A DNA stretch of 64,000 nt from a virus. Position 1 is the stretch's first letter, and every line of letters starts with the position of its first letter. The DNA is taken from positions 54,148-118,147 of the IMG/VR virus record IMGVR_UViG_3300008117_004020. The stretch is one strand, 5' to 3'. The translations under genes and the position numbers were made by a program. The notes beneath the pieces were generated by a model. It was not told the origin of the DNA and made no database searches. It worked only from the letters and a program-made list of their open reading frames with translations. Shown piece after piece: positions 29,402-45,670 of the stretch.

Positions 29402-32400
29402 TTACCAACCTCCCACTCTATATTCTGGGATGTAACCACCTTGTTTTGATTGTCTTGGGTTGTTTGCATCAGCCATATTCATCATCATCATAGCTGCCAT
29501 AGGATTCTTATTAAACATTATTTGCTGTAAATATAGCTTATCAAATGGATTATTAGGATCCAATTTATTCTGAGTGATAAAGTTTCTATATTGAGCATAT
29601 CCATCACCACCAAGTCCAGTACCAAAACCAAATGGGTTAGTATCAGCTACTGAATACCCACTTCCTGGTTTAAAGTACATATTATAACTTAATGGGTCAA
29701 AAGCTGCCTGAGGATACATTTGATTCATTAAATACTGCTTGTTAGCATTAGCCACCGTATTTATAAAAGCTGCTTTTTTTTGTGCAAACTTGTCCATATT
29801 AGATCTATCAACATTACTTATAAAAACAGCATTTTTATCAGCTAGCTGAGTATTAGCAAGGGCTTCTTCTCTAGCAGCTTGATTGTAGATTTGATTATTC
29901 ATTTGCTCATTAGCTGTAGCAAACTGAATGTTTTGTAATCCTGTATCTAATGTATTCTTTTGAATCTCAGGAAGTAAACTAGCGTTCACTTGCATTTGTC
30001 TAGCAGCTCTAGTTTGAGGAGCTCCACCATACAAATCATTACCTGCCATTGCCATAGCACCTTGAGACTGTAAAAGTCTATTATATGCATCTGTACTAAT
30101 CTGCTTTGCATCAGTATACCTAGGTTGCCATTTAGCTTGATATGGAGGAACATTTCTATAAGGATCATATTGAGCAGCAGCAAATCCTAATATATCTTCT
30201 TCAAATGGACGCTTTTGCAAAACCTGTGAATATGTACTATATACTCTTTTTTTGTCCTCCTCTTTCTTTTTTAAATCATAAGAAGAAGTTTTATCACCCT
30301 TATCTTTTTCTCCACTAGTACTTTCTGAAGTGCTCTCATCAGGAGTATCAAATGTAGCATATAAATCAGGTGTTCCTTCTTTTCCTTTTGTACCTTCTAA
30401 TGGTTGATAATACGTTTCCCAAAATCTTTTTACATCTTCTCTAGGAAGTACTATTCTTCCTACACCAGGTTTATATGCTGTAATTTCTTCCCATGTTGCG
30501 CCTTTTTCTGCAAGAGCCTTAACCATTGGTCTCCAATCTCCTTTTCTGGAACTTCTTCTAGGAGTTACACCTAATGAACCTGGTTGTCCAGATATACCTT
30601 CTTGACCTTGTTGCCAATATAAATTAGGATAGTTATTAGGATCATAAGGAATATATCCCTGTGGAATTTGAGTTTTATCTTTTACTTTGGTAGCTCTAAT
30701 CTTCCTTCCATTGATATCAACATCCACTTCACCATCAGTTTGGAACTTATGTAGTCCACCATGCATCATCATTTCAGGAGATTCTTCTTCTTGTTCTTGT
30801 GGTTGCTGTGGAGCTGTCATTCCCAAAGCCTCACTCAATTCTTCCATATTTTTAGGAGGATTGGTTTGTATCACCTGAGCCAACAAGTCTCCCATACCCT
30901 GCATGCGCATAAGCTTCATCATAGCAGGCATAGCTAATGATGGAATATCATACTCCTTACCCATCATACCCTTGGTCAATTCACCCCCTAATACAGCCTT
31001 AGACATATAATCCTGATAGACGCCAAACTTGTTCATAGCTGTAGATAGTTCAAACTGGTCTGTAATACCACCACCTTGAGCAGTTTTAATAATTTCCGCC
31101 AGTCTATTGTAGTCTTTAGCATTCACCTTAGATCCTAACAGCTTAGCCCATGTATTGTCTTTCTTTTTGTTAGACTCTACATCAAAACCCATCACTTCTT
31201 TTAAAAATGATGGAGCTGTGATATAATCACTCACTACATAAGACCCTGGTTCTACATTAACAGGAACACCCCCTTGACTATGTTTTTTACCATTAACATC
31301 ATAGACGCTCATGCCATCCTTAGCTATAATCATCTCACCTCCCTCCACTTCAATGTTAGGATTGTCTTTTTCACTAGCTTTAGGATAGACAGATCTAATC
31401 TCTGAGTCAACAGGCGCTTCTTCAAAAGATTTAAAATCTCTTACACCTTGTCCTCTATAAAGACCATAGCCCATTTGATCACCCACTGTTCTACCTCCTT
31501 CAGCATATTGACGCTTATCAGAAGTACCTGTAATTCTTATTTTCATACTATTAGGATTATCTTGTAACATATTATCTTCTGGTATTTCTCCACCTTCTTC
31601 AAAATACCCTTGTTGTTTTAATTGATTATAGATCTTTCTATCCTCCCACTTAACAAACTCTTCAAATACCTTTTTCTTTTGTTTTTCATTTAGTTGATTT
31701 AGCTTAATATCTGTACCTACCTCTTTCACTATATATGGGGTGGAACTAGTTTGTTGTTTGGGATTACCAGTGACCCATTTGTTTCTAGCTTCTGAAATAG
31801 AAAGATTATTATAAGCACTTCCAAATATCAAATCACGCATAGCCTTTAAGCCTGTTTCCATATCAGGGAATATTGCCACATGACCATTACCATCCTTTCT
31901 ACCCTTTATTCCACCATACACCTTTGCAAAATCACCCTCTATATGTATATTACCAGGATTATTATGATCCCAGTTAGATATATTAGTTTTATTACTCTTT
32001 TCTCCACTTACACCTTTAACATTAAACAAATGAGAAGGATCTACAAATTTACCTGTTGCATCTCTAAAAGTAAAATGTAAATGTGGACCAGTTGATATGC
32101 CACTATTGCCAGATAACGCCACCTGTTGACCTCTAGTCACCTTATCTCCAATAGTCACTGTATAATCATTTAGATGCGCAAACCCAGACTTTGAACCATC
32201 GTTATGCCTGATAATCAATTGTTTACCACCTTTATCATTACTATAAATATTCTCAACCACCCCATCCATAGGAGAATAAACAATACTATTTACTGGAGCA
32301 GCTAAATCAATTCCATTGTGACTAGATGAAGCTCCTTTTTTTGGTGACTTACGTGGACCAAATCCACTTGTAATTTTAAAGTCTTTTAGAGGCATTGCTA

Positions 32401-33331
32401 TTTCTGAACTTGCACTAGCTGTAGATGAGGCCTCAGAGTCTATAGATGTAACATCAGATTTATCAACTGGTTTAGTAGCAGCATCTTTAGATGAAGCATC
32501 TTGTGCTGGTGTTGGTGCTGTTGCACCACCCACTGGACCAGCATTTCCACCTGGATAATATCCTTGACTCATGTAACGCTCATAGTTCATATTACCTCCA
32601 CTACCAGGCATATAGTCAGGATAGGGTGCTCCTTTCACTGTAGGAGGTATGTCAAATGGCACTAATGCTCCACGCTGTGCCATAAATCTATTACGAGAGT
32701 TATACAAAGACTCTGAGTAGTATGCAGGATATCCCATGTATTCTCTTACAGGTCTACCAGCAAATGGTGTAGGAGTGGTAATCATACCAGGTGTACCTAC
32801 ATTCATAAGCAAGTTGCCTCTCTCACCACCAGGAGCTGTTACAAAGTTTGCAGACTGCCCTAGTTCCTTAGCATACTGGGTGTTGGTATTATAGTTATCT
32901 ATACCCTGCATTAAATCTGAAAACATAGACATACCAGCATTAATCATTGATGGTAGAATATAATTAGACTGTCTAAATGTCTTTTTATTTTGTGCAGCAG
33001 TTTGATTTATAGCTCCAGGACCCCCTACTTTTTGACCCATAGGATTAGTTGTTCCAGTAATAGGTTGTCCTTTAGATCCTACACCTTGACCCATCCAAAT
33101 TCTATTAGCTTCTAATTGTTCAGGATATATCCAATTCCCAGTCTCATCTTGAACCATTCCAGCTGTTGGTGATGCAGAAGGCATCATATTACTAGGACGA
33201 GAAGGTATATTATCAATGTCTGGTATACAGTTACCAAATCCATCATCCATATATCCTTGAGGGCAATCATTAAATAACCCTCTCATTTGAAACTTTGGTA
33301 GTCTTTTTTGACCTGTAATTTTAATACGCAT
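29402..33331 (-). CDS. Modular cargo protein (1309 aa) with an M23 peptidase and an NNPGNI lysozyme-like domain
   Basis: HNGIDLA and STGPHLHF (M23, about 32030-32395); HNNPGNI...FPDMETG.KAM; EVEGGE...HSQGGVPV; recurring xxGG motifs. Confidence 0.8.
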   Translation of the reverse strand: MRIKITGQKRLPKFQMRGLFNDCPQGYMDDGFGNCIPDIDNIPSRPSNMMPSASPTAGMVQDETGNWIYPEQLEANRIWMGQGVGSKGQPITGTTNPMGQKVGGPGAINQTAAQNKKTFRQSNYILPSMINAGMSMFSDLMQGIDNYNTNTQYAKELGQSANFVTAPGGERGNLLMNVGTPGMITTPTPFAGRPVREYMGYPAYYSESLYNSRNRFMAQRGALVPFDIPPTVKGAPYPDYMPGSGGNMNYERYMSQGYYPGGNAGPVGGATAPTPAQDASSKDAATKPVDKSDVTSIDSEASSTASASSEIAMPLKDFKITSGFGPRKSPKKGASSSHNGIDLAAPVNSIVYSPMDGVVENIYSNDKGGKQLIIRHNDGSKSGFAHLNDYTVTIGDKVTRGQQVALSGNSGISTGPHLHFTFRDATGKFVDPSHLFNVKGVSGEKSNKTNISNWDHNNPGNIHIEGDFAKVYGGIKGRKDGNGHVAIFPDMETGLKAMRDLIFGSAYNNLSISEARNKWVTGNPKQQTSSTPYIVKEVGTDIKLNQLNEKQKKKVFEEFVKWEDRKIYNQLKQQGYFEEGGEIPEDNMLQDNPNSMKIRITGTSDKRQYAEGGRTVGDQMGYGLYRGQGVRDFKSFEEAPVDSEIRSVYPKASEKDNPNIEVEGGEMIIAKDGMSVYDVNGKKHSQGGVPVNVEPGSYVVSDYITAPSFLKEVMGFDVESNKKKDNTWAKLLGSKVNAKDYNRLAEIIKTAQGGGITDQFELSTAMNKFGVYQDYMSKAVLGGELTKGMMGKEYDIPSLAMPAMMKLMRMQGMGDLLAQVIQTNPPKNMEELSEALGMTAPQQPQEQEEESPEMMMHGGLHKFQTDGEVDVDINGRKIRATKVKDKTQIPQGYIPYDPNNYPNLYWQQGQEGISGQPGSLGVTPRRSSRKGDWRPMVKALAEKGATWEEITAYKPGVGRIVLPREDVKRFWETYYQPLEGTKGKEGTPDLYATFDTPDESTSESTSGEKDKGDKTSSYDLKKKEEDKKRVYSTYSQVLQKRPFEEDILGFAAAQYDPYRNVPPYQAKWQPRYTDAKQISTDAYNRLLQSQGAMAMAGNDLYGGAPQTRAARQMQVNASLLPEIQKNTLDTGLQNIQFATANEQMNNQIYNQAAREEALANTQLADKNAVFISNVDRSNMDKFAQKKAAFINTVANANKQYLMNQMYPQAAFDPLSYNMYFKPGSGYSVADTNPFGFGTGLGGDGYAQYRNFITQNKLDPNNPFDKLYLQQIMFNKNPMAAMMMMNMADANNPRQSKQGGYIPEYRVGGW

Positions 33332-33342
33332 ACTATTTAAAA

Positions 33343-33918
33343 TTAATCAATTATCTCAAATTTATAGCCTTCTGCTGTAAGTTTTTTTAGCATTTCTTCA
33401 TTTACATCATTTAATACAGTACCTACAGTGAGACCACCCTCTTGCATATATTGCTTCATAGGGTTATTATCTGCATACAAAGATGGTGCTATTGTATACA
33501 TATATGGTGAATTTGCATACGCTGGGATATTAACCTCTCCTTCATATTGATAAGAAGACATACCACCATCTCCAAACATAATATTCTGTGGAAAGTATCC
33601 TCCAAAGTTATACATAGCATTCCCTTCTTTCATATAGTTAGGAATATCACCACCATGCCTATACCACATATTACCTGAGTTAGTTGATCCACCACCTCTG
33701 TATTGAGCACCTGTTTGTTGTTCTTGAATCATTGCTTGAACAGCCTGCCTAATTTGCATTATAGCTTTTTGCTGATCTTTAGGATTCATCTCCTGAATTT
33801 GCTTAATAAGCTTTTCAGGTGTTGTATTAGAAGCTTTTGCATATAATGCGATCTCTTGCATTAATGTATCATCTGTCATGTCCCCATCTTGATTTTGAGG
33901 ATAGTAGGATTTGTTCAT
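33343..33918 (-). CDS. Small protein (191 aa) rich in [YFM]xxGG repeats
   Basis: YRGGG, YRHGG, YNFGG, FGDGG, MQEGG; tight packing with neighbouring genes. Confidence 0.7.
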   Translation of the reverse strand: MNKSYYPQNQDGDMTDDTLMQEIALYAKASNTTPEKLIKQIQEMNPKDQQKAIMQIRQAVQAMIQEQQTGAQYRGGGSTNSGNMWYRHGGDIPNYMKEGNAMYNFGGYFPQNIMFGDGGMSSYQYEGEVNIPAYANSPYMYTIAPSLYADNNPMKQYMQEGGLTVGTVLNDVNEEMLKKLTAEGYKFEIID

Positions 33919-33923
33919 TTGAT

Positions 33924-36900
33924 TTATTTTTTAATTTTCATGTTATAATAGTCCTTCAACAATCCACCCTCTTTCATAGATTTTTTAGATGGTTTGGAAA
34001 CATAACCTCCATAATTATACTGTAGATTAGTATAATTAAGCATTTCACCAAGTGTTGGTTGGTATTCTTGAGGATTTTTTTGTTTAAACTCAACTCTTTT
34101 ATCTTGATGAACATATGGGTTAAACTTATCTTTCTTTGCATAGTCAATACCATATTTAATGTCTTTAGTCACTCTTGGTCCTGTAGTTCTACTTAATTTA
34201 TTATCAAGAGATATATATTTAGGATCTTTAATTATTTTACTTTCTGCAATTCTTTTTAAAGAATCTAATTTCTCAAATATATTCCATCTTTGTTGTGCAG
34301 CTTGTTCTGTATAATAACCTCCTTCACCTCTTGCTTTATCAAATAATTCACTAAGCTCTTTATTAAGTTTTTTTACTTCTGGTTTACTATTATAATAAAT
34401 ATCCATTTTATTATCATAATAGTTCTCACGCTCTCTATAATATTTTTCAGTGTCAGGGTGATAGTAAGTTCTACTAAACATAGCATCTAATACCCCTACC
34501 CTGCTGTCTCCATATGCAGGAGCATTAGGATTAATACCTAACCATGGACGATCAGGTCTATAATAGAAATTGCTCACTCTTGAAAAACTTGGGGGATTAG
34601 GATAGAAATTCTTAGGATCATTTACACCAACAAGATCATTAGTGGAACAACTTCCTAAATAACAATTAAAATCACCAGCTCTTCTTTGAGCTTGTTCTAA
34701 TGCATCTCCCCATAAGTCATTAGGAATACCTGCATATCTTGAACCATGATGACCTAATATATAAACTCTGTCATCTTTTGTAATCTTACCTAATGTAGGA
34801 ACCACTTGTTTGTCAAAGTATTCTTTACCATATCCTGGCATAATAACTACTTCTTCATTGGGATAGTTTTTACCAATATATGTTTGTAAGTTTTTTGCTT
34901 CTTGTATAAAAGCAGAGGTTGTACGAGGACCAGGAAGACCTGCATTAGGGTCTTCAGGAAACACATAATGTTTTACTGTGCCTTTCTTTTGATACTTAGG
35001 TATTTTAGGAGCGAGTACAGGTATAGATATGTCTCCGCCACCTTGCATTATATTACCACCATACTTTCTATCATAATATCCTGTAGTTCCAGTTCCTATA
35101 CCTATAGGTCTACTCTGAAGCTCTTGCATAAACTGTGAACCTTCTTTCTCAGATGGAAAATATTGAGATGCTCTTTTACCAGACTCATCCGTATAGTCTA
35201 CTCTATAAGGAGTGCTCATATTAACTTTTCCTGATATATCTCCAGCTACCTGTCTAGTTAATGGAAGTATATTATACTCAGGAGCTTGAGATTCTCTTTC
35301 ATTTTTAACAGCTCCACGTTTAGGATGTAAAGTAGCTTCTCTATAAATAACAGGTTGTTTTGGTTTATCGTAAACATATGTTCTTTTATGTCCACCAGTT
35401 CCACCACCTAGATCTACCCATTCATTTGAATATTTAACACCTGCAGGATATTGTTTTTGTTTTATAGCGTATTCCGCATTTTTGAAAAGTTCTTTAAATT
35501 TTGGATTTTTTTTAACACTTTCACGATATTTTTTTAAATTTTCTTTTCTTTCTTGTGCTGATTCTACATGATCATAATGTTCAACAAAACCAACAGCTGG
35601 ATACCTTTGAAAGTTTACAGCACTATCACCATGAGCTTTCAATCTAGGATCATTAGGATCATTTGTATATATAGGAGGAAGAGTCCCACCTTTTTGCATC
35701 ATAGGATATTCATCTACATAATCTGCACCTGGAAAGTAATAGTCTTGACCAGGCTGCATAATAATTTTTTGACCTGTATTAGCATGCGCTTCTACAGGAT
35801 AAGGTACTCCATCCATTGTAATACTAGGCGAAAATACTCTTGTATTTTTACCAGGATGAGCCCATTGACCTCTATCATCATTTATCACCTTCCCTTGTTT
35901 AGCCGTAGTTCCTAAAGATAGTTGATTTGCAGAACCTCCCCATTTTTTAGTTGGAAAAACTTCTTCAATAGGTTCTTTAACTTTTTCACTAGGTTTACTA
36001 TCAAATAAATCATCTGCGTTAAAAACACCATTATAGCCTATACTATATTCAGGATTTGGATCTGCATTCCATTTGTCTATATACTCTTGACGTTCTTTAT
36101 TGGTTTTAAGGTTTATATTTTTTTTGCCAGTATCAGTATACATTGTCAATTCATAAGGACTTTCTATTTTATCAGTTTTTAAATATTCTAATGGAGTAGT
36201 ATTAATTTGTCCAAGCGATAAACTAGCAGCTGATTTACTTCCATCTTCTTCAGAGCTTTGGAAAGCTCTTGATCCACTAAATCTATCCTTAAGTTTTTTC
36301 CATGAATCATAATCCTTTACATATACTGTTTGCTGTTTACCTTGGTAATCTACATAATTAATAGCAAAAGAAGGATTGAATTCTACCTTTTGTTTAGCTT
36401 CTTGAAACTCAGGAGCATATTGAGTAGAAGCGGTGTCAACAAGATTACCTTTCTCATCATAATGTTTAGAGTCCACATGATAATCTGTAATAGCTACAGG
36501 ATTAATTATTTGATTTCCACTTATTACAGAGGCTGACTGATCAACAAATTCATCAACTGCTTTTGGATCATTTCCTTCTTTGATTAATTTGTCCTTATAT
36601 TGTTGAGTAGTATGTCTAACTAAAGGTTGATTTTTATATTTAGTAACGCTTTTAGCAACTGATTTCTTATCTTTATAAGATTTATCAGATGTTGATAATG
36701 TAGGACGAGCATTATTTGCTGTAATTGTTTTTTCATTAAAACTATTAAGATCATTTTCTTTTATACTAACTGCAGAGTTAATTGCTGCATTTGTACTATC
36801 ACTAGCTAATTGATTCCTTCTATTAAAATCATTTATATCTGATGTAATATATGGAGCAGGTCTTGGAACACATGTTCTTTTTACTGTATCCCAATACATA

Positions 36901-39900
36901 TTAGCAGGACATGATCCTGGACCACCTATATCAAATCTTGGAATTTCATATTTAATATCACCACCATTAGCATATCTACCTACATTTTGATAATAATTTT
37001 TTTGTAATGAAGGATTAGTAAAAATTCCTCTCTCCATTGATTTAGTAAGAGGATTATAACTAAATGATTTTAATCCTTCTATACCAGGTAAATCCATTTC
37101 AGTAGTTGGAGTGATAGTTATATTTTTTCTAGGTAATACCCCTTTTTGTAAAACATCACCTAATAATTCCCGATGTGTATCTAAAGGTCTACCTAATGAG
37201 GATTCAAGAGCTGATTGTTTTGCAAATAAATGTCTCCCAAATGGTTTATCAAATATAGATCGTTTAAACATCCCACTATATGGTTGGCTTTTCAACCACC
37301 ACGTTTTGTCACCTGTTAACTTACCAAGATCATTATGAATAATCCAATCATCAATTGGAGTAACTTCTTCATCATATTTAAAATAATCTTTATATGGATC
37401 ATCAAATTCAATTGGTGCTGCATCTGAAACATTATATTTCTTTTGTAACTTTTTAATATGTTTACTAGGATATGGATGATCTGGTCTTGGCATAAACATG
37501 TATGTTTCATCAGAAAGCCCTATTCCATTCTCAAACTCTGACATATAATACATCCTACCATTTCTTTGCAAAAAAGGACCATCAGAATACCACACTGTTT
37601 TTCCTTCAGGGAAATTAGGAGTGCCTTTATAAGATACATTAGGCCCAATAAGCTCTTCTTCAAGAATACGATTAGCATAATATCTATCAGCAAGTTTTGT
37701 ATTTAACTTACTGTTATTTAGCATTTTAGATACAATGACGCTTCTAGGACTGGGTATATTAGAAAGAAGACCTGATTCTGTACCTAAAGCTTTACGTGTT
37801 GCGTTTGCAATTTTTACTGGAGCATTTGTAACAGATTTAGAGCCAGGTAACATTTTAAAACTACCTACACCTGCTACATCACCTAATACTCCTAAAGCTG
37901 GAAGTATATTACTAGTAATACCATCACTGTTAAACCCATATGGATTTTGTCCAACAGCTAATTGCGTAAGTCTACCTGAAGAAGTTATGGGAGCTGTAAT
38001 AGGATTCATATTTACAAATACCTCAGATCCAGCAGTAGCAGCATCATAATCTCTACCAGATGGTGTAGCCATAGCAGCTGTTTGTACTAATGCTGGTGTT
38101 TGTACTTTTCCCCATGCACCTCCCTTAGCTGTTGGGTCATTAGCTGGAGCTATATCACCTGTCTCATAATTAAACTTAGCTCCTGTTTCAAATGCACGTT
38201 GTTTATTTAATTCATACCTTCTTTTTTTAGATTGAGGTGATTCAGGTGTAGCTGGACCTACAAATGTTCTTCTAGCATTTTCTCTAGCACCAGCATCCAT
38301 TTTTCTTTTTGTCTCAGCAGCTATAGCAGCACGTTGCATTACAGCTAAAGCGTCAGCATCTGTAGAATAGTTAGTAGTCTGTCCTAAATCCATCATCCAA
38401 GGATAAACTGTTCCTTTGGTTTGATATTTTTGTAATCCCCCTTCTTTATTAGGTGTAAGATTTTGCCATGCATCTATACCTCTATAGGTTTCTCCTAAAT
38501 CTAAATTTTTGGGAACCTTGCCATATAACTTGTTTAAACGCGCTTGAATTTTTGAAGATGTTTCTGCATCATCCGCCATTTTTAAAAGATCCTCATAATG
38601 TTTAATTTGATTAGATACTACTGAATTTAAATCAACATAGTTAGCCAGCTCATCTCCAAATACATAAATGTTTTTATTTCCTATGTCAAAGTTGGGATCC
38701 ATCATGTTAGATGGATTAGCACGCATTACTCCTTTAGCTTGTGACCCAAGAGGTTTTCTACTCCATAAATACTCAGGTCTAAAATCTTTATGATATGGAT
38801 TATAAGTATTTGCACCTCTTGTTAATTTTTGAAAAGTCCTTTCTAATGATAAATTATGGTCAAAATCAGGATGATTTTTTAAATTATCTAAAGTTCTATT
38901 AACAGCATGATTAATAGCATCTTTCCAATCATACCCCATATTAGTAAAATCACGAATATGTTTCTTATATTCATCCATGAATATTTGTTCATTAAACAAC
39001 TGCTCATTAGTTACAAAATCTAATTTTGTTGGAACTTTTTGTTCTCCATATTGAGCTAAATTAACTAATCTATCACCTGCTGTTGGATTTTGAGAACTAT
39101 AGTAAGTTCTTCCTTTTTGATTTTTTGCTGCTTCTTCAGCACCTTTTTCCTGTTGTTTTAAAAACTGCATATACTCTTCTGCTGTAGAAGGTATACCTGC
39201 TTTTTTATTAAACCAGCTATCTGTAACTCTTTGATTACGAGCTGCTAATCTAGAACTAGGAGGAAGCTCTTCTACAAAAACTGTTTCTGGATTATAGGTA
39301 CTACCTGATGGTGTCCTTGTAGTCATTTTAAGCATACCAAGATCACCAGATAATGCTAAAGCCCCTAGTATGTTTTGTCCTATACTATTATCTGCACTAA
39401 AATATGGATTGAATGTCTTAGGATCAAACATACTTCTACCAGCCCCATAAAGTCTGCTTGTTGACATAATAGGTCCAGTGATAAGAGGATTCATATTCAC
39501 TGTAGTCTCAGCTCCTATTACACCAGCATCTACATTATCTCCTGTAGGCGTAAACAATCCCATAGTTTGAGCTAAAGCGCTGTTTCTCTGAGCTTGACTT
39601 CTAGCATATTCTTGTGCAGATTGTTTTCTTTGTACATCGTACACTTTATTATACTGCCCAATCTGAGGACCTGTTTGTACAGCCCTTTGTTCATTTCTTC
39701 TAGCTATAGCTAAAGCATCAGATGGAGAAACTCTATATCCTGTAGGATTAGTAATAGGATGATAGGGTTGATCTGGTCCTACAGTGCCATCAGTTTGATA
39801 TTGATGCAGTCCCCCATATCCTTTCTTATTAAGAAATTTTTTAACATAATTAAGCTGGTTCTTTATCTTTTCTTCATATACAGGATCTGATGCATACCTA

Positions 39901-40433
39901 TTACCCGCTGCATTAATAAATCCTTTAGGCTTAAGTAAGTCTTCAAATGACTTTTCTCCTTTCTGTAAATAATCATTATACATTAAGTTAAGATAGTCAC
40001 CAACAGATTGTTTTGCAGAAGGGTAGTCTTTAGTTAATCCTTCATCTGTATTACCAATATTAAAATAATTATATTTGCTTTTAAGTTTTGTACCTAACCC
40101 ACTTTCCATTTGACCTTGAGTTAATATCATTTCTAGTGGAGCTTGATAACCAGTCTTATTATAAAAGTCCATAGCTGCATCTGCTATATCTTTAGCCTTA
40201 AGAGATGTGCCTTTAAACACTGGGCGGTTTAAATACTTTTGAGCGCTATTCAGATATGTATTATAATCAAAAGCGGGTTTTGTTGAACTTTCATTTCCTC
40301 CCATCATTCCCCTCATAAATGACCCAAGTCCAGATGCTATTTTAGACACTAAAGGATCAAAGATGTAATTTCCAACCTGTGCTTTTGGAAGTTTACCACT
40401 ATAATAGTTGCTAAGTTTAGATTTTTTTGCCAT
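33924..40433 (-). CDS. Multi-module cargo polyprotein (2169 aa) with an N-terminal GH73 glucosaminidase-like domain
   Basis: QGQMESGLG...YNYFNIG...YASDPVY (GH73-like, about 39830-40260); internal duplications; GQWAHPG...ITMDGVPYPV...EYPM domain; C-terminal GHHG...LGSC domain. Confidence 0.7.
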   Translation of the reverse strand: MAKKSKLSNYYSGKLPKAQVGNYIFDPLVSKIASGLGSFMRGMMGGNESSTKPAFDYNTYLNSAQKYLNRPVFKGTSLKAKDIADAAMDFYNKTGYQAPLEMILTQGQMESGLGTKLKSKYNYFNIGNTDEGLTKDYPSAKQSVGDYLNLMYNDYLQKGEKSFEDLLKPKGFINAAGNRYASDPVYEEKIKNQLNYVKKFLNKKGYGGLHQYQTDGTVGPDQPYHPITNPTGYRVSPSDALAIARRNEQRAVQTGPQIGQYNKVYDVQRKQSAQEYARSQAQRNSALAQTMGLFTPTGDNVDAGVIGAETTVNMNPLITGPIMSTSRLYGAGRSMFDPKTFNPYFSADNSIGQNILGALALSGDLGMLKMTTRTPSGSTYNPETVFVEELPPSSRLAARNQRVTDSWFNKKAGIPSTAEEYMQFLKQQEKGAEEAAKNQKGRTYYSSQNPTAGDRLVNLAQYGEQKVPTKLDFVTNEQLFNEQIFMDEYKKHIRDFTNMGYDWKDAINHAVNRTLDNLKNHPDFDHNLSLERTFQKLTRGANTYNPYHKDFRPEYLWSRKPLGSQAKGVMRANPSNMMDPNFDIGNKNIYVFGDELANYVDLNSVVSNQIKHYEDLLKMADDAETSSKIQARLNKLYGKVPKNLDLGETYRGIDAWQNLTPNKEGGLQKYQTKGTVYPWMMDLGQTTNYSTDADALAVMQRAAIAAETKRKMDAGARENARRTFVGPATPESPQSKKRRYELNKQRAFETGAKFNYETGDIAPANDPTAKGGAWGKVQTPALVQTAAMATPSGRDYDAATAGSEVFVNMNPITAPITSSGRLTQLAVGQNPYGFNSDGITSNILPALGVLGDVAGVGSFKMLPGSKSVTNAPVKIANATRKALGTESGLLSNIPSPRSVIVSKMLNNSKLNTKLADRYYANRILEEELIGPNVSYKGTPNFPEGKTVWYSDGPFLQRNGRMYYMSEFENGIGLSDETYMFMPRPDHPYPSKHIKKLQKKYNVSDAAPIEFDDPYKDYFKYDEEVTPIDDWIIHNDLGKLTGDKTWWLKSQPYSGMFKRSIFDKPFGRHLFAKQSALESSLGRPLDTHRELLGDVLQKGVLPRKNITITPTTEMDLPGIEGLKSFSYNPLTKSMERGIFTNPSLQKNYYQNVGRYANGGDIKYEIPRFDIGGPGSCPANMYWDTVKRTCVPRPAPYITSDINDFNRRNQLASDSTNAAINSAVSIKENDLNSFNEKTITANNARPTLSTSDKSYKDKKSVAKSVTKYKNQPLVRHTTQQYKDKLIKEGNDPKAVDEFVDQSASVISGNQIINPVAITDYHVDSKHYDEKGNLVDTASTQYAPEFQEAKQKVEFNPSFAINYVDYQGKQQTVYVKDYDSWKKLKDRFSGSRAFQSSEEDGSKSAASLSLGQINTTPLEYLKTDKIESPYELTMYTDTGKKNINLKTNKERQEYIDKWNADPNPEYSIGYNGVFNADDLFDSKPSEKVKEPIEEVFPTKKWGGSANQLSLGTTAKQGKVINDDRGQWAHPGKNTRVFSPSITMDGVPYPVEAHANTGQKIIMQPGQDYYFPGADYVDEYPMMQKGGTLPPIYTNDPNDPRLKAHGDSAVNFQRYPAVGFVEHYDHVESAQERKENLKKYRESVKKNPKFKELFKNAEYAIKQKQYPAGVKYSNEWVDLGGGTGGHKRTYVYDKPKQPVIYREATLHPKRGAVKNERESQAPEYNILPLTRQVAGDISGKVNMSTPYRVDYTDESGKRASQYFPSEKEGSQFMQELQSRPIGIGTGTTGYYDRKYGGNIMQGGGDISIPVLAPKIPKYQKKGTVKHYVFPEDPNAGLPGPRTTSAFIQEAKNLQTYIGKNYPNEEVVIMPGYGKEYFDKQVVPTLGKITKDDRVYILGHHGSRYAGIPNDLWGDALEQAQRRAGDFNCYLGSCSTNDLVGVNDPKNFYPNPPSFSRVSNFYYRPDRPWLGINPNAPAYGDSRVGVLDAMFSRTYYHPDTEKYYRERENYYDNKMDIYYNSKPEVKKLNKELSELFDKARGEGGYYTEQAAQQRWNIFEKLDSLKRIAESKIIKDPKYISLDNKLSRTTGPRVTKDIKYGIDYAKKDKFNPYVHQDKRVEFKQKNPQEYQPTLGEMLNYTNLQYNYGGYVSKPSKKSMKEGGLLKDYYNMKIKK

Positions 40434-40434
40434 T

Positions 40435-43400
40435 TTATCTAAATGATTTAGTCATTTTTTGATTAGACAATCTAAATAACATTTTAACATCATCAGATAC
40501 CATCCTCTTTAATAATATCTTATTAAGATAGTGTCTGATTTTTTTATGTTGTAAAGATGTCTTTTGATAATTTACATAGCGATCATTTAATTCTCTCTCA
40601 TATCCATTAGCTGCTGTTTCCCATATAGGTTGATAGTTAGTTATAAACTCCCCGCGATTACGCGTGACATCCCAAAACTGATTAAACCTATACTTATTCT
40701 CTTCCTTAGAATACAATATATCAATATTACTAGACTTGACAATAGGATATTCTATTAGAGCTATAGGATCATTCTTAGGTTTAAGAACTAGTCTTAGATT
40801 ACCTGATGTTTGTTCTGTATTATGAATAACAGCCCTGTCAAAGTTCCAATCCAGAATATGATTCTTGTCTTGACATGTACCATCATATTTATAGCATTCC
40901 AACTGATACTCTACACTCTTTAATGTTGCCACCTCTTGTCCTGTAGATGATACAAACTCCACCTCAAATGGGTAATTTACACCATAGAAATTACAGAATA
41001 GGTCACAACGATCATTATGTCTGTAGATGTCTGTTCCTTTAGTTGTCAAGAAATGACTTTTAGAAGGAAGGACTAAATCAGGATGCCAGTCATGGAAACT
41101 AATCCAAGACTGTGATTTAACATCATAACTCACTGTAAATGAAGCATCTTCAAAATATAAAGGATCACCTAAATATATAGTTCTTGTTGCTCCTATTTTA
41201 AAGATGTTTGCCTTATGGTACACTAATGTGGAAGCATACTCATCTCTCACCTTATAGTCCTTCTTACATAAATAAAGAATATTGTTAATATTATCATATG
41301 TAAGTTGGACACCCACTCCCAAAATCGGATTATCTGACAACTCAAAATCAGGATATGACTTAAGCAAATATGAAGGGAGGTATTTAGCAAACCACCATTT
41401 GAGTCCTGCATTAGATATTTCTTGCAATCCTTGTGCAAAATAAAACACCCTTCCTTGGTTCTGACTCACCCAGAATAAACCCATAGGTGTATTTAATACA
41501 GCACCAGAGTTTTGACATGATCCATATTCATAGACATATTCAGCATTACTTGCTGCTTGCATTGGAGTACCAAAAAGCCCACCATCACCAATAGTCACTT
41601 TTACTCCATTAGTAGTCTGAAGTTGATCCACCCCAGCAAAGAAATCAGGACTTGCATTTTTAAATAATATAATAGATCCAGACTGATTGATTGACTTCAT
41701 AGAAACAACAGTACTAGAAAAATCATAATAGTTATTAGCTAAAAATACTCTCCAATTATCTTTTTTAAGTTCTTTTTGTGTAGGCAGTGAATATATAGCT
41801 CTTGATGAATAGTAGGAATAACAAGAAGAAGCCACCTCAGGATCATAGTCTTTTGGTAACACTGTACCCCATGATATGTTATTCTGGAACATTCTACTAG
41901 CTGATAAACTATAGTCATACTTGTAATAGTTACCAGCCTTAATTAAATCAGACCTAAATAAATACTGAAGGTCAGTGTATGTATATTGATCATAGTGTCT
42001 TTGTCCATCATTCTCTCCATAGTCTCTTTGTGCAAGATTGATTTCTGATTCTACAAAGAAGTCTTTTACACCATTCGCAAACAAATAGAAATATCCATTC
42101 TTTACTCCAAACCCTATTTTACCTGTAAGGCAATCGCTTTTAAGTCTATCCAAATGCATAAAATCATTTGGTAAAGCATTGTTTTTCCAGGAATTTATTG
42201 AAATAGCAGCACTACTTCCAGCACCAGCTATGGTAGATAGAGTGGTTAAAAAAGACTTAATTGTAACATTACCAAATATCTTTTTATCCTGTGCAGTTTT
42301 ATTAAATAAACTACTAAGCTGTCTGCCTATTGCATTTCCTATGAGTGCTCCAGAAACCGTATTAACAAATGGTTGAATAAGTACTGAGGAATCATACTCA
42401 TTTGAATTCATCCAATATCTGGGATACGTTATGTTAACATGCTCCATATAGTTAAATGGATACTCATTAGGTTGTCCTATTAACCAATCATTAAAGAAAC
42501 AAAATGAATTCTTCTCAGTGTAGCGATTAATATAAACATCACCTCCAAATAAAACAGGAGATGTGAATTTAGTGCTAGGCGTTGTATTTGTGAAATGAAC
42601 ACACGATGATACTGGTACTTGCAATACCCCATCTAACTGCCCATATTGACTAGGCATCTTAATTTTCAAAGAAGCATAATGAGATGATATAGTTCTTTTA
42701 AAAGATGCTGTAGGATTACTGTACTGTTTTAATCCTCCAATAGTAACCCTTGAATTATCTTTTGTGGTAGGATCATCAAACTCTCCATTAGTTTGAAGAA
42801 TAACATATCTTCCTCTAAATAGATTATTAATTCTATAGTCTAAACCAAAATCTTGAATATATGGGTTAATGTATTGAGCATCAATAAGTTTGCGTCTTCT
42901 ATTGTTTTGTGTAGGCTCAATATAATTATTATAAAACCCATGAGCATCATATTGATATGCGTATTGCTCAGGAGAAACCATTTGTTTAATTATTCTAAGA
43001 GCATTCTCCATACCCTCTCCCATAAAATATAAGAACGTCAGGGTTTTTTGAGCAGCTGCTAATGTAGGAATCTCATCAAAAGGAGATTGTTCTTGTGTTA
43101 CTGATTTATCAGTGGATATATTATATCCCCCAAAATTGGCATTAGGTCCAACACTAGGTTTTTTAATTAATTCATTTAGTGGTAATAATGGTCCAACAAA
43201 CAGCGGGTCAACACCTTCTGCAGAACCACTTGTACCTGTAGGTTGTCCTGTAATAGAGAGACCTAAATTAAAGCCTCTTGCATTATTAATAGTGGTGGTG
43301 GAAGTTTTCTTTCCAAGTAATGATGTAAGTCCTATACCTGTACCCACTATACCAGCTATAAATAAAGCAAAATCCCTAAGCAGCTTATGCTTAGGATGTT

Positions 43401-45303
43401 TATAAGGAACAGTAAATTTACCTTCTGCATTTCCCCAATACTCACCATGAATCTTCACCTCATAAGGATTTAGATAGGGATCTCTAAACTGTGTGTCAGG
43501 AGAATGAAAACTAAACATGTCTCTAAGGAATGTACCCATAGGTTCATATCCTTTACCCTGACAACCACCCTTCACTTCTTTTTTAGAAAGAAAAGGGTCA
43601 ATGTTTAAATCATTAAAAGGATAGTTTTGATATAATCCCTTACGACTAGTGATGTCAGGATTAATCTCATACTCTCCCATATTGCTAAGTATACCCTTTG
43701 CAATCACTGTTTTATTTCCTTCCCTGGACCCTCTAAGAATCTCATATCCTACCACTGATTCAAGAGGAACACCATTATTGTCTAATGGATGGGTGATGTT
43801 TTCAAACTTAACACCTAATAATACGATACTATTAGTGGTTGTATTGTAAATATGAGAAGTGCTATTATCAGGCATCTTGTGATGTCTGATAGGCTTACCG
43901 CACAAATCTCCCCATATTTGGGGTTTGTCATCTGGGTATTTCTCTGTTGATTCCCAATATCCCATTGTACCCTCAGCTACAACCTTTCCTTCATTATTAG
44001 GAAGAATGGAAGAAGATCTTGATGTAGTGTTTGATGTATCAAATACTTCCCATCTTTTAGCAGGGACTGTTGGATTGTCTTGATTCTCAATAGCATCTCT
44101 ACCTCCAGCAACAGATATATCACGCCCTACAGAAGCTCTACCAGGAATATGATAGCTCGCAGACTTCTCACCTGTGTTATACACCCAGCGAATAAAAAAT
44201 GAATATACCTCATCACGCAAATAGGATGTTTGATTTCCACCCTTAATATAGTAATCAGCAGGTTGTTCTACAGCCACCCACTTTGTTAAAATCTTATTAG
44301 CTTGAGGTTGATAGTTAAAGTCTGGTTTAGTGTATATGCCAATTCTAATCAGATAATCATTTAAACTAAGCAAATTATCAGATTTCTCATACGCTGGTGT
44401 AATCAATGGAATGAGATCAAGCCCTACAGTTTTTAACGCAGGATCAAGTTTATCAATAGACACCTTAGTGGTTCTAGTTGAATAATACCCTATGATTCTA
44501 GCTGTTAAGTTTTCTTTAACATAGCTAATCAAGACTAATTCAAACTCATCAAAATCTAAATCAATACTGTCAATTTCCACCTCCAATGCTCCATTGTTAT
44601 CAGCGTGTGTAAATAAAGACTGTATATTTGAAGGAAGAAAGTAATCAGTGACTTTAATGCCTGCAATACTATATGCTATTGCCACCTGGTATGATCCATT
44701 AGGCATTGTTCCACCTGACTTAGATTTAATTACTCTTAAGCATGGAGTGGTCATTAATGGTGCCAGTCTTAATGCTTCACAATCTAATTCATTAGAATAT
44801 TGGGGAACATAGCATGTATTTGCTATTGTATTACTTTTAGGTATTTCTTTATAAGGAATCCTATCTACATTTAATACTCTTGTTGGGTTGATTCCATCAT
44901 CCCAGTATAAAGATGTAGTGCAGTCAGCATTTGATTTAATGGCTGCCTTAATAAGATTTGTTCTTTTGAAATTAAGACATGGAGCATTAACTACTTTTTC
45001 GTAGGTGCATGTACTTTCTCTAAACAATCCTATCTCTGAGTTTACGTCATCTGTAGAGAATAAGTACCATTTGTCTTGTTCATCATATAAAGCAGCAATA
45101 ATAGGGTAGGGGGTACTGCTGCAAAACTTATTAGCAGGTTCATTTCCTAAATATCCAACATGTCCTTCATTAGTGTTATTGACAGCATTACGCGCGTGCG
45201 TCCACATGCCCTCACCTATGTAAGATTCTGCAGTGTCTTTATTAAGACCTTTGACAAAAGAATTTGTCTTTATATTACTGGATTCTTGAAAATTACTCGC
45301 CAT
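40435..45303 (-). CDS. Tail muzzle/stabilization protein (crAss-like), 1622 aa
   Basis: FVKGLNKD...HARNAV start, YWDDGINP, MGYWESTEKYP, IRHHKMPD, FGGDVYINR, WISFHDWHP; beta-rich; located after the ring genes. Confidence 0.8.
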   Translation of the reverse strand: MASNFQESSNIKTNSFVKGLNKDTAESYIGEGMWTHARNAVNNTNEGHVGYLGNEPANKFCSSTPYPIIAALYDEQDKWYLFSTDDVNSEIGLFRESTCTYEKVVNAPCLNFKRTNLIKAAIKSNADCTTSLYWDDGINPTRVLNVDRIPYKEIPKSNTIANTCYVPQYSNELDCEALRLAPLMTTPCLRVIKSKSGGTMPNGSYQVAIAYSIAGIKVTDYFLPSNIQSLFTHADNNGALEVEIDSIDLDFDEFELVLISYVKENLTARIIGYYSTRTTKVSIDKLDPALKTVGLDLIPLITPAYEKSDNLLSLNDYLIRIGIYTKPDFNYQPQANKILTKWVAVEQPADYYIKGGNQTSYLRDEVYSFFIRWVYNTGEKSASYHIPGRASVGRDISVAGGRDAIENQDNPTVPAKRWEVFDTSNTTSRSSSILPNNEGKVVAEGTMGYWESTEKYPDDKPQIWGDLCGKPIRHHKMPDNSTSHIYNTTTNSIVLLGVKFENITHPLDNNGVPLESVVGYEILRGSREGNKTVIAKGILSNMGEYEINPDITSRKGLYQNYPFNDLNIDPFLSKKEVKGGCQGKGYEPMGTFLRDMFSFHSPDTQFRDPYLNPYEVKIHGEYWGNAEGKFTVPYKHPKHKLLRDFALFIAGIVGTGIGLTSLLGKKTSTTTINNARGFNLGLSITGQPTGTSGSAEGVDPLFVGPLLPLNELIKKPSVGPNANFGGYNISTDKSVTQEQSPFDEIPTLAAAQKTLTFLYFMGEGMENALRIIKQMVSPEQYAYQYDAHGFYNNYIEPTQNNRRRKLIDAQYINPYIQDFGLDYRINNLFRGRYVILQTNGEFDDPTTKDNSRVTIGGLKQYSNPTASFKRTISSHYASLKIKMPSQYGQLDGVLQVPVSSCVHFTNTTPSTKFTSPVLFGGDVYINRYTEKNSFCFFNDWLIGQPNEYPFNYMEHVNITYPRYWMNSNEYDSSVLIQPFVNTVSGALIGNAIGRQLSSLFNKTAQDKKIFGNVTIKSFLTTLSTIAGAGSSAAISINSWKNNALPNDFMHLDRLKSDCLTGKIGFGVKNGYFYLFANGVKDFFVESEINLAQRDYGENDGQRHYDQYTYTDLQYLFRSDLIKAGNYYKYDYSLSASRMFQNNISWGTVLPKDYDPEVASSCYSYYSSRAIYSLPTQKELKKDNWRVFLANNYYDFSSTVVSMKSINQSGSIILFKNASPDFFAGVDQLQTTNGVKVTIGDGGLFGTPMQAASNAEYVYEYGSCQNSGAVLNTPMGLFWVSQNQGRVFYFAQGLQEISNAGLKWWFAKYLPSYLLKSYPDFELSDNPILGVGVQLTYDNINNILYLCKKDYKVRDEYASTLVYHKANIFKIGATRTIYLGDPLYFEDASFTVSYDVKSQSWISFHDWHPDLVLPSKSHFLTTKGTDIYRHNDRCDLFCNFYGVNYPFEVEFVSSTGQEVATLKSVEYQLECYKYDGTCQDKNHILDWNFDRAVIHNTEQTSGNLRLVLKPKNDPIALIEYPIVKSSNIDILYSKEENKYRFNQFWDVTRNRGEFITNYQPIWETAANGYERELNDRYVNYQKTSLQHKKIRHYLNKILLKRMVSDDVKMLFRLSNQKMTKSFR

Positions 45304-45670
45304 GTTTAACCTTCAAATTCTTTTTATCTAAAAATTTATGAAGCACACCTGTTATATGTCCACACAACCATGCTTGAGTTTCCTCATCTACAATATCTCT
45401 ATCCTCAGTTATCTTCACTGTAGCATGATAGATTTCATGTGCTATAGTATTATAAGACAAATATCTAAGATCAATTACTAAATAATAGTCTGTAATATCA
45501 GGAGATAGTACAACACCTTCTGCTTCATCTGTAAATTGATATCCCATTTTGTGAGTGGAGCATATCTTATTAACTGTCTTATTCAATGCTGATGTTACAT
45601 ACAGTATCAACTTACAGTTGTATACAGGTAGGTCTACAGTCTTCTTATATGTTGTGTTTTTAACTACCAT
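45293..45670 (-). CDS. Small zincin-like metalloprotease
   Basis: IAHEIYHA followed by DEETQAWL (HExxH...E). Confidence 0.65.
   Translation of the reverse strand: MVVKNTTYKKTVDLPVYNCKLILYVTSALNKTVNKICSTHKMGYQFTDEAEGVVLSPDITDYYLVIDLRYLSYNTIAHEIYHATVKITEDRDIVDEETQAWLCGHITGVLHKFLDKKNLKVKHGE

Follow-up and report, generated by a model that had tools for sequence, protein, structure and literature searches.

A short Gly-Gly-terminated peptide recurs at module ends in three adjacent, probable cargo proteins of a freshwater crAss-like phage

The window analysed here, a stretch of 64,000 nucleotides from a 118-kb genome, holds three adjacent genes that directly follow the tail muzzle gene, as is also the case for crAss_CARG1. 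Their place in the gene order is the basis on which we regard the three proteins of this freshwater crAss-like phage as probably particle-carried, injected cargo. A Pfam scan (105 ORFs of the 118-kb genome, E<=0.01) returned matches to CrAss_Ring_1 and CrAss_Ring_2, and four giant ORFs (1035, 2813, 2391 and 2214 aa) lie downstream of the cargo genes.

40435-45303: muzzle-type protein, 1622 aa, phrog_37948; the three cargo genes come next
33924..40433, minus strand: cargo gene 1, 2169 aa, directly after the muzzle gene
33343..33918, minus strand: cargo gene 2, 191 aa
29402..33331, minus strand: cargo gene 3, 1309 aa

A preliminary description of the window had reported about 20 related Gly-Gly motifs in these three genes and none in the four genes downstream, and both observations held on counting. 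Strict matches to [YFM]xxGG, which we call seams, numbered 6, 5 and 5 (16 in all, with about 3.7 expected), rising to about 20 when two long copies without Y/F/M at -3 and the looser KYGG, KKWGG and SKQGG were added; the four giants had 0 sites. All nine short motifs that had been named were found (YANGG, FDIGG, MQKGG, MQGGG, YNYGG, MKEGG, FEEGG, YAEGG and YRVGG), and the long ones were correctly placed, GGLHQYQTDGTV at 39780-39815, GGLQKYQTKGTV at 38406-38441 and GGLHKFQTDGEV at 30725-30760. Enrichment over shuffled controls, on which the description had let its claim stand or fall, was also seen. Whole-protein shuffles gave means of 1.7, 0.3 and 1.7 for the three proteins, the observed count being reached in 6/500, 0/500 and 12/500. 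Shuffling within blocks of 10, 20 and 40 residues, which preserves local composition, gave means of 4.9, 4.8 and 4.4 and maxima of 13, 14 and 12, and 16 sites were reached in 0/2000 such shuffles. Genome-wide, 16 sites fell in the 3 cargo ORFs (3669 aa) versus 16 in the other 108 ORFs (32477 aa).

The 2169-aa protein runs from GH73 through two copies of a ~200-aa repeat and an internal 'first-cargo' barrel domain to a seam-rich tail:

39849..40175, minus strand: GH73 (Pfam Glucosaminidase, E 1.5e-8), aa 87-195
39780..39815, minus strand: long seam GGLHQYQTDGTV, aa 207-218, at the GH73 end and the start of repeat A
39324..39815, minus strand: repeat A, aa ~207-370 (BLASTP E 2e-14 against repeat B)
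37848..38441, minus strand: repeat B, aa ~665-862, opening with long seam GGLQKYQTKGTV (38406-38441)
36921..36974, minus strand: seams YANGG (aa 1154-1158) and FDIGG (aa 1167-1171)
36864..36911, minus strand: two-cysteine loop C-P-x11-C-V-P directly after FDIGG, read from the sequence
35934..35948, minus strand: KKWGG, aa 1496-1500, matching the N-terminus position of the stand-alone first-cargo protein
35685..35918, minus strand: conserved small beta-barrel domain, aa ~1506-1578, ending in MQKGG
35685-35699, minus strand: seam MQKGG, aa 1579-1583, the end of the barrel domain
34974..35048, minus strand: MQGGG (aa 1796-1800), then KYQKKGTV (aa 1813-1820)
33963..34019, minus strand: C-terminal seams YNYGG (aa 2139-2143) and MKEGG (aa 2153-2157)

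Gly-Gly stood at the same place after GH73 in 6/6 GH73 homologues examined, with differing sequence downstream. Two of the three long GGLxKYQTxGxV copies were paralogous (BLASTP, repeats A and B), and as both open the duplicated module they are not independent of each other. Structure prediction placed the barrel at pLDDT 96-98, falling to 70 at its seam, which was modelled as coil after the last strand. Gly-Gly was kept at the barrel end in 33/39 relatives and lay within 7 aa of the domain end in 140/147 family members, and KKxGG directly preceded 4/5 other internal copies of the barrel. At the far end of the protein, MKEGG is 12 residues ahead of the stop. A two-cysteine loop similar to that after FDIGG occurs at the N-terminus of the 1309-aa protein.

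The 191-aa protein bears no payload; it combines a Q-rich helix with five seams and an acidic module at its C-terminus (ESM Atlas model pLDDT 0.50):

33562..33702, minus strand: four-seam array YRGGG, YRHGG, YNFGG and FGDGG, aa 73-119
33349..33450, minus strand: MQEGG and C-terminal acidic helix-GY-strand module, aa 157-190 (weak match)

The acidic module at aa 157-190 is this genome's best-scoring domain of its kind, at a weak iE of 0.014. A 796-aa relative matches residues 26-70 at one end and residues 76-190 at the other, with some 600 aa inserted between.

The 1309-aa protein is an M23-bearing protein fused to a conserved 'hub' cargo protein:

32036..32323, minus strand: Peptidase_M23, aa 337-432 (Pfam E 7e-25)
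31493..31603, minus strand: fusion joint, with FEEGG (aa 577-581), relict start MKIRITG (aa 596-602) and YAEGG (aa 609-613)
31187..31369, minus strand: conserved hub domain with HSQGG (aa 684-688), invariant in 38/38 aligned sequences
30725..30769, minus strand: MMHGG and long seam GGLHKFQTDGEV, aa 855-869, where the conserved hub region ends
29405..29422, minus strand: C-terminal YRVGG-W-stop

At the nearest related locus (L001) the third ORF after the muzzle gene corresponds to aa 128-587 and the fourth, which also ends in YRVGG-W-stop, to aa 612-1309. The separate ORF of L001 ends in FKEGG followed by an acidic module, which was lost in the fusion; the 1309-aa protein unites the counterparts of two ORFs of this nearest relative exactly at seams. 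Six HSPs terminated at aa 852-860, next to the GGLHKFQTDGEV seam. HSQGG was rejected as a copy of the linker seam, being invariant within a conserved domain. YRVGG, a single residue from the C-terminus, cannot be a linker. The ORF that immediately precedes the hub gene carries a type of acidic module that is absent here exactly where that ORF and the hub are fused.

That the motifs fall at domain boundaries, as first described, received independent support for about 12 of 18 sites: the GH73 end, the starts of the two repeat units, the conserved barrel end, the two flanks of the fusion joint, the point where the conserved hub region stops and, in two proteins, the final 31 residues. This support did not extend to the 2169-aa protein's sites at aa 1154-1171 and aa 1789-1800, nor to that at aa 258-262 in the 1309-aa protein. 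The three cargo proteins are chains of exchangeable modules whose ends bear one short conserved, Gly-Gly-terminated peptide. Each of the two Pfam domains found in them (GH73; M23) is the only one in its protein, and relatives show ART-PolyVal (3/47 proteins scanned), SLT+LysM, M23, DUF5872 and DUF5754.

Across 77 related loci the motif was enriched 4- to 6-fold, only in the three genes that come next after the muzzle gene (observed/expected: upstream 114/95; muzzle gene 155/96; downstream ORF 1 256/60, ORF 2 326/57, ORF 3 133/34 and ORF 4 14/7.5). A 6-fold enrichment was seen in 150 diverse proteins (<=50% identity) of a family with 4519 cluster representatives. Much of the evidence overall comes from related, non-independent sequences. 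Y/F/M occupied -3 in 630/1629 GG pairs, versus a background of 11% and 121-323 at other offsets, and in 568/1172 pairs of the 150 diverse members; -2 was Q/K/R/A in 84%. Gly and Lys codon use at seams matched the background, indicating that selection acts at the protein level. A seam lay within the last 35 residues of 67/147 complete ORFs (17.6 expected; maximum of 1000 simulations, 31), and N-terminal seams (30 vs 19.7 expected) had no comparable bias. Ends of mosaic homology blocks lay 5 aa or less from a seam at 2.7-2.8 times the frequency found for random positions. The barrel was N-terminal in 145/150 family proteins. The acidic C-terminal module occurred in 66/79 loci, with 83/124 copies at ORF ends; its seam forms the helix-strand turn, with YIVE (45x), YVVE (28x) or FIIE (13x) after the Gly-Gly. 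The KYQT-type long form was confined to 2/77 loci, 0/150 family members and 4/9 GH73 homologues. These results show that the seams are conserved at the protein level and specific to this gene class, and that they mark where modules were joined, split, inserted and exchanged. From the sequence comparisons, the seam motif is a real, very widespread, clade-wide feature, and we found no description of it in the literature searched.

Several known systems offer likenesses. Encapsulin targeting peptides and the T4 capsid-targeting sequence are short terminal peptides on flexible Gly-rich tethers that load varied payloads into an HK97-type shell. The seams resemble them in being a short, flexibly tethered terminal peptide common to unrelated payloads, with C-terminal bias, a shared acidic module and a payload-free carrier; they differ in being also internal, in many copies and without known shell contact. 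Adenovirus protease, ubiquitin-like proteases, coronavirus PLpro and the C39 peptidases of double-glycine leaders all process at Gly-Gly, and their sites, like the seams, have a hydrophobic residue a few places before it, though two before the first Gly in (M/I/L)XGG and LXGG rather than three. A double-glycine leader/C39 system, in which GG closes an N-terminal leader of 15-30 aa, was rejected, as the seams are biased to the C-terminus (67/147) and not the N-terminus, and no C39 match was found. To our knowledge, the ejection proteins of T7 and P22 have no repeated seam peptide.

The closest known counterpart by position is gp45 (cargo C1) of crAss001, a virion cargo protein thought to exit first and to help build the conduit (Bayfield et al., 2023; PMC10172136); as here, its gene directly follows the muzzle gene. 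It carries FDTGG, FAEGG and FAYGG, with GG-flanked short peptides beside ordered segments, and in the available text FAEGG (aa 260-264) and FAYGG (aa 559-563) fall just outside the virion-ordered aa 214-245 and 425-552 (PMC10172136). That text makes no mention of a seam motif. Pfam crAss_CARG1 (PF25725) had no match in this genome, even with the cut-off relaxed to E<=10. When profile A1 was compared by hhalign with gp45, whose portal-bound domain spans aa 425-552, a weak alignment of 33 columns resulted (gp45 aa 479-511; E 0.011, probability 3.9%), and the profile did not match gp45 among PDB sequences. Unlike crAss001, the present, uncultured phage has three cargo genes, GH73 and M23 payloads and a fused hub. 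Polyvalent proteins, as portrayed in the accessible text of Iyer et al. (2017; PMC5512222), are likewise large, multi-module, DNA-co-delivered and highly mosaic, but often have a zincin-like MPTase, for which there was neither a Pfam match nor an HExxH here; that text describes no linker or glycine motif ('linker', 'glycine' and 'crAss' 0 occurrences each). The podovirus ejection proteins T7 gp14/15/16 and P22 gp7/16/20 are, according to the portion consulted of PMC10172136, also internal and first-ejected, some with a peptidoglycan hydrolase.

The explanation that we tentatively favour over cleavage is that seams are uncut recognition peptides at the module ends and termini of the first-ejected crAss-like cargo proteins, the class whose genes lie after the muzzle gene and before the RNA-polymerase block. 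A seam has Y/F/M at -3, usually Q/K/R/A next, one more residue and then Gly-Gly; it is located where an independently folding module exits on its C-terminal side, or at the protein end, and a short peptide from a limited repertoire often follows it. The chain most likely remains uncut, the Gly-Gly may act as a free swivel between modules, and a common partner may read the conserved residues and terminal peptides while cargo is loaded or held in the particle. The 191-aa protein would then be a bare carrier, with GH73, M23 and other modules as exchangeable payloads.

The preliminary description had inferred either protease cleavage sites or capsid-packaging tags. Its pattern proved to extend far beyond this genome, but neither mechanism was borne out; we infer that the explanation favoured here is nearer to its tag than to its cleavage. 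A packaging tag is in better agreement with the bias to termini, the arrays and a 191-aa protein that has no payload. Evidence against a tag comes from the crAss001 virion, where, in the published portions consulted, the ordered, bound parts of gp45 adjoin the canonical motifs rather than lie on them, so that the mature virion shows no stable, symmetric binding of the motifs. A general role in threading was rejected, as the polymerase-block giants are also ejected and yet have 0 seams.

A passive cap and hinge, in which the hydrophobic residue packs on the preceding module, the Gly-Gly is flexible and the whole is inherited with the module and read by nothing, is rather unlikely. It would agree with the predicted structure, in which the seam is coil directly after the last strand of a confident domain, with the helix-strand turn in the acidic C-terminal module, and with no reading partner having been found. 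However, the same ending occurs on unrelated modules (GH73, barrel, hub region, SET-like and others), the -2 preference for Q/K/R/A (84%) is more than a hinge would require, at the terminal copies there is nothing for a hinge to join, and the phage's other multidomain proteins do without seams (16 sites in 32477 aa).

We consider processing unlikely; on this reading the cargo proteins would be polyproteins whose modules are released when a protease of phage or host origin cleaves behind Gly-Gly, either within the capsid or once ejection has taken place. Cutting at Gly-Gly is common in viral and ubiquitin-like systems, which speaks for this, as do the position of seams at module exits and the tolerance of fusion and fission there. 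In relatives, the first cargo protein was strongly enriched in HExxH (31 vs 1.0 expected, in 24/77 loci), as was the family (38 vs 1.1 expected, in 31/150 proteins), leaving room for in-cis proteolysis. In the available text, polyvalent virion proteins were proposed to be autoprocessed by zincin-like domains (PMC5512222) and fused crAss polymerase-block proteins to be "likely cleaved" (preprint 10.1101/2020.03.07.982082). Against cleavage, the three proteins here lack HExxH, and 27 HExxH segments gave no Pfam peptidase match above cut-off. The only peptidases found by Pfam among 105 ORFs were two papain-like C1 with Big_7, a weak CHAP and M23, with no prohead/maturation, C39 or adenain/Ulp-type (CE-clan) protease in the 118-kb genome; nor did a protease co-occur with the motif within +-10 kb in 79 related loci (this phage's papain-like peptidases 0/79, M23 1/79). 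Arrays spaced 7-17 residues apart and a seam one residue before the stop would give odd products, 5 copies in 90 residues suit a processing site poorly, and N- and C-terminal modules keep fixed places (barrel N-terminal in 145/150). In the crAss001 text consulted, the gp45 GG pairs at aa 427-428, 434-435 and 447-448, though within a fold, lie inside the continuous ordered domain 425-552, and 'cleav', 'proteoly' and 'protease' each occur 0 times in the text of the atlas paper. As to cleavage products, the text of the crAss001 papers gives no gp45 fragment sizes.

A role of the seams once the cargo has been ejected, with the short aromatic-lysine peptides that glycines flank (GGWLDKY, GGxxKYQT, KRVKI..LPK) binding the host envelope or a host factor during conduit building, is very unlikely. 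Such a role would suit the amphipathic vocabulary of these peptides and the confinement of the motif to the envelope-breaching class (GH73, M23, SLT+LysM), with its absence from the polymerase block, but the long forms are lineage-limited (KYQT-type 2/77 loci, 0/150 members, 4/9 GH73 homologues). Chance, composition or paralogy alone is scarcely credible and, for the short motif, refuted: two of the three long motifs are copies in one duplicated module and the motif regions are rich in G, Y and M, but no local shuffle (0/2000) reached the observed count, and the position-specific signal was seen again across the 77 loci and the 150 proteins of <=50% identity.

Beyond uncut recognition, we put forward as a doubtful but wider proposal that the seams and few terminal peptides form a generic loading-and-ejection code of crAss-like phages, with docking between cargo proteins. 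Whatever domain a carrier like the 191-aa protein bore between two seams would be loaded close to the portal and ejected into the host, and successive cargo proteins would be docked to one another by their C-terminal acidic modules. If true, such a code would explain the rapid turnover of payloads (GH73, M23, SLT, ART, SET-like and HExxH modules), and would be a handle for putting chosen proteins into these phages.

The virus record containing the window is a 118-kb genome of a crAss-like phage, other parts of which encode the terminase, the portal and the major capsid protein. Searches with the DNA or with the 1309-aa protein described below returned no close relatives among phage records or viral contigs. 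The genes relevant here are as follows.

46760-47434, tail ring protein 2 (Pfam)
45670-46509, tail ring protein 1 (Pfam)
40435-45303, 1622-aa muzzle-type protein, grouped in PHROGs with crAss-type virion structural proteins
33924-40433, 2169-aa cargo protein, with GH73 at aa 87-195
33343-33918, 191-aa cargo protein
29402-33331, 1309-aa cargo protein, with M23 at aa 337-432

The three cargo genes, on the minus strand, are followed by the four giants of the polymerase block (1035, 2813, 2391 and 2214 aa). The start of the 191-aa gene comes 5 bases past the 2169-aa stop codon and in a different frame (33918-33926), and the two genes jointly carry an arrangement, from barrel domain to acidic C-terminal module, that is one ORF in most relatives. 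Outside the window, the phage's own genome also encodes a ferritin-like protein adjoining a ring 3/4-like protein, and a sigma-70 region-2 protein (G000:C1:1561-2145, 49941-50501).

A preliminary description had reported a recurring peptide, [YFM]xxGG, here called the seam, with a long form GGLxK[YF]QTxG (here GGxxK[YF]QTxGxV), at domain boundaries of the three cargo proteins. Every motif that it quoted was found at its coordinates. Strict seams numbered 6, 5 and 5 in the 2169-, 191- and 1309-aa proteins, against 1.7, 0.3 and 1.7 in whole-protein shuffles. Shuffling in blocks of 10-40 residues gave 4.4-4.9 sites and reached 16 in 0 of 2000 trials. The 3669 aa of the three proteins hold 16 sites, as many as the remaining 32477 aa of the genome, and the four giants hold none, in line with the preliminary description. 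Two matches elsewhere, in a 197-aa lysis-region ORF and a 188-aa ORF (62013-62579), look like chance on reading. In the 1309-aa protein, HSQGG (aa 684-688) differs from the seams: it is part of a conserved domain, and all 38 sequences aligned there share it.

A search with the muzzle protein as query yielded 79 related loci, each taken with 10 kb on either side; 77 of them had a muzzle ORF that we could place. Across these, observed and expected seams were 114 and 95 in upstream ORFs, 155 and 96 in the muzzle gene, then 256 and 60, 326 and 57, and 133 and 34 in the three ORFs immediately downstream, and 14 and 7.5 in the fourth. Tyr, Phe or Met stood at position -3 in 630 of 1629 GG pairs, against a background of 11% and 121-323 at other offsets; position -2 preferred Q, K, A and R. 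A profile of the conserved domain of about 80 residues that normally opens the first downstream ORF (the barrel domain) had 4519 matches among cluster representatives (E ≤ 1e-3); the 150 best of these carried 573 seams where 95.6 were expected, with Y/F/M at -3 in 568 of 1172 GG pairs. Among known phages, Cellulophaga phage phi17:2 gp041 has 4 seams (0.7 expected), and next to none occur in Flavobacterium phage Fpv1. The literature searched yielded no account of the motif. The seam is a real and conserved peptide that is specific to this protein class; it marks the ends of modules and of proteins in the first-ejected cargo proteins, and is a new feature in an already known kind of protein.

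The positions of the seams relative to modules could be defined at several sites. After GH73, a GG occupied the same place in all six GH73 homologues read, while the sequence beyond differed each time; in this phage the GH73 exit is YGG followed by the long form. In the 2169-aa protein the barrel domain is internal (aa ~1506-1578), and HSPs from 39 loci stop at its MQKGG, with the GG kept in 33 of the 39 relatives. Across the family, 140 of 147 members had a GG no more than 7 residues from the domain end. An AlphaFold model of aa 1496-1720 (45-sequence alignment) gave pLDDT 96-98 for aa 1516-1575, with the last strand ending at aa 1577; the seam that follows is coil, and pLDDT drops to 70 and then below 50. 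A helix C-cap (Schellman) reading was unsupported for this one modelled seam, which is coil after a strand. The barrel is N-terminal in 145 of the best 150 family members, and a basic-x-GG lies just upstream of it in four of the five internal cases and in this phage (KKWGG, aa 1496-1500). Searches of the PDB with the barrel gave no match at E ≤ 1e-3; the best were weak, to cupin-like barrels.

Six hub-region HSPs (the hub being the conserved cargo protein that forms aa 612-1309 of the 1309-aa protein) end at aa 852-860, the site of MMHGG plus the long form. Seams also mark protein ends: of 147 complete ORFs, 67 had one in the C-terminal 35 residues, where 17.6 were expected and no more than 31 arose in any of 1000 simulations, whilst the first 35 residues showed no clear excess (30, 19.7 expected). 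Of the ends of mosaic homology blocks, 10.3% and 11.2% were no more than 5 residues from a seam, compared with 3.8% and 4.1% of random positions, in data that are non-independent. Within 35685-40433, the barrel lies about 1500 residues into the 2169-aa protein, preceded by GH73 and by two repeats of about 200 aa (aa 207-370 and 665-862), each ending in Gly-rich hydrophobic stretches. A loop with two cysteines, of the pattern C-P-x(11)-C-[VI]-P, was seen directly behind a seam of the 2169-aa protein (36864-36911) and again close to where the 1309-aa protein begins (33221-33265); similar loops follow seams in some relatives (first ORFs of related loci L008, L057 and L065).

The 1309-aa protein corresponds to two separate ORFs of the nearest relative, matching its aa 128-587 and aa 612-1309; separate counterparts are ORFs 3 and 4 past the muzzle gene in the nearest relatives, loci L001 and L002. 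At the joint (31493-31603, aa 577-613), FEEGG and YAEGG stand on either side of a relict start-like MKIRITG, and the fusion lacks the acidic module that ends the upstream ORF. The relict resembles the protein's own N-terminus, MRIKITG.

This acidic helix-GG-strand module was present in 66 of the 79 loci, with 83 of its 124 copies at ORF ends, chiefly in downstream ORFs 1 (69) and 2 (46). It occurs as two types, one ending the first ORF and the other ending the ORF directly before the hub gene. The module itself holds a seam, with YIVE (45 times) or YVVE (28 times) after the GG, and may contain a Schellman C-cap. A basic peptide, KKYSRSL..ATNKLF, was considered as its partner, but the two were not associated: the acidic module occurred in 14 of the 23 loci that carry the peptide and in 30 of the 54 that lack it. 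The C-terminus of the 191-aa protein is a weak copy of the acidic module (domain iE 0.014). Since aa 26-70 and 76-190 of this protein match the two ends of a 796-aa relative, in which about 600 residues are inserted between them, we regard it as a carrier without payload. It has one homologue of similar length; its ESM Atlas model has a pLDDT of 0.50, and an ESM Atlas search gave no usable matches.

The long form is lineage-limited: 2 of 77 loci and 4 of 9 GH73 homologues have it, and none of the best 150 family members. The GH73 homologues also carry related forms, GGWLDKY and KRVKI..LPK, with the latter at the two ends of one protein. Two of the three copies in this phage open a duplicated module of about 200 residues (E 2e-14). 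An extended motif, GG[DEY]I..P, was dropped, as it occurs at just 5 of 563 seams. Payload modules seen in relatives included ART-PolyVal (3 of 47 proteins scanned), LysM+SLT (2), DUF5872 (5) and DUF5754 (3), and by eye SET-domain-like stretches open some first ORFs, each then followed by F-x-x-GG (loci for these observations: L008, L016, L028; L004, L020; L038, L053, L020, L061). A nucleotide-level signal such as a recombination site or frameshift heptamer was ruled out because codon use at seams equals background (Gly GGT 0.66/0.62 at seams, 0.59 in the background; Lys AAA 0.80 in both).

The structurally characterized phage crAss001 has the same gene positions, with muzzle gp44 and cargo gp45 and gp46 followed by polymerase-associated giants (PMC10172136). 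Its gp45 has three strict seams (1.2 expected) plus looser copies, gp47 has four (0.95 expected), and gp46, gp49 and gp50 have none. Two gp45 seams, FAEGG (aa 260-264) and FAYGG (aa 559-563), fall shortly beyond the segments that the paper's text gives as ordered (aa 214-245 and 425-552). A GG within the solved domain of gp45 would seem to be uncut, on comparison of the range stated in that text with the sequence (PMC10172136). The size of the gp45 band in crAss001 virions is not stated in the paper text or supplements searched, and the PF25725 profile had no match in our phage's genome.

We tentatively read the seams as uncut recognition or holding peptides: their close arrays and terminal copies, and the fixed positions of the end modules, would favour recognition over processing. 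That they form a passive cap-and-hinge is a rather doubtful alternative. We consider it unlikely that they are cleavage sites, as the preliminary description had offered as one option. In relatives, HExxH was enriched about 30-fold in the first ORF past the muzzle gene (31, 1.0 expected, in 24 of 77 loci; L004-L074) and numbered 38 (1.1 expected) in 31 of the best 150 family proteins (P0016-P0165). Zincin-mediated autoprocessing of polyvalent virion proteins (PMC5512222) and cleavage of fused crAss-like polymerase-block proteins (10.1101/2020.03.07.982082) have also been proposed, the seam motif going unmentioned in the text available from either. However, HExxH is absent from all three of our cargo proteins, and 27 HExxH segments of relatives had no Pfam peptidase match above cut-off. 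Pfam likewise revealed no maturation, C39 or adenain/Ulp-type protease among 105 ORFs of the genome, and the terms 'cleav', 'proteoly' and 'protease' do not occur in the crAss001 atlas paper text available. M23 as a built-in Gly-Gly endopeptidase was rejected as a general answer, occurring in 1 of 79 loci (±10-kb flanks), and the two papain-like peptidases with Big_7 domains were rejected as seam protease, occurring in 0 of 79 over the same flanks. The latter (51963-53021 and 53479-54597) are paralogues among tail/fibre genes, with an N-terminal Big_7 Ig-like domain and Peptidase_C1 (papain-family). A lone HELLH (20643-20657) lies at aa 1859-1863 of the 2813-aa giant, in a region with no Pfam or phage-record match; a zincin-like domain is reported in the crAss-like polymerase block in the text available of 10.1101/2020.03.07.982082. 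Action of the seams after ejection seems improbable.

Few known viruses rival crAss-like phages in abundance, and the protein that these phages load and eject amounts to several megadaltons. The peptide occurs across thousands of protein clusters, and also in the one structurally solved member; its position at every module end of the first-ejected cargo proteins explains the free exchange of payload modules. It offers a concrete, mutable element with which to probe how cargo is chosen and held, and whether it is processed. If the seam is a tag, these phages may serve to deliver chosen proteins; were it a cleavage site, the cargo would represent a phage polyprotein system of a new kind.
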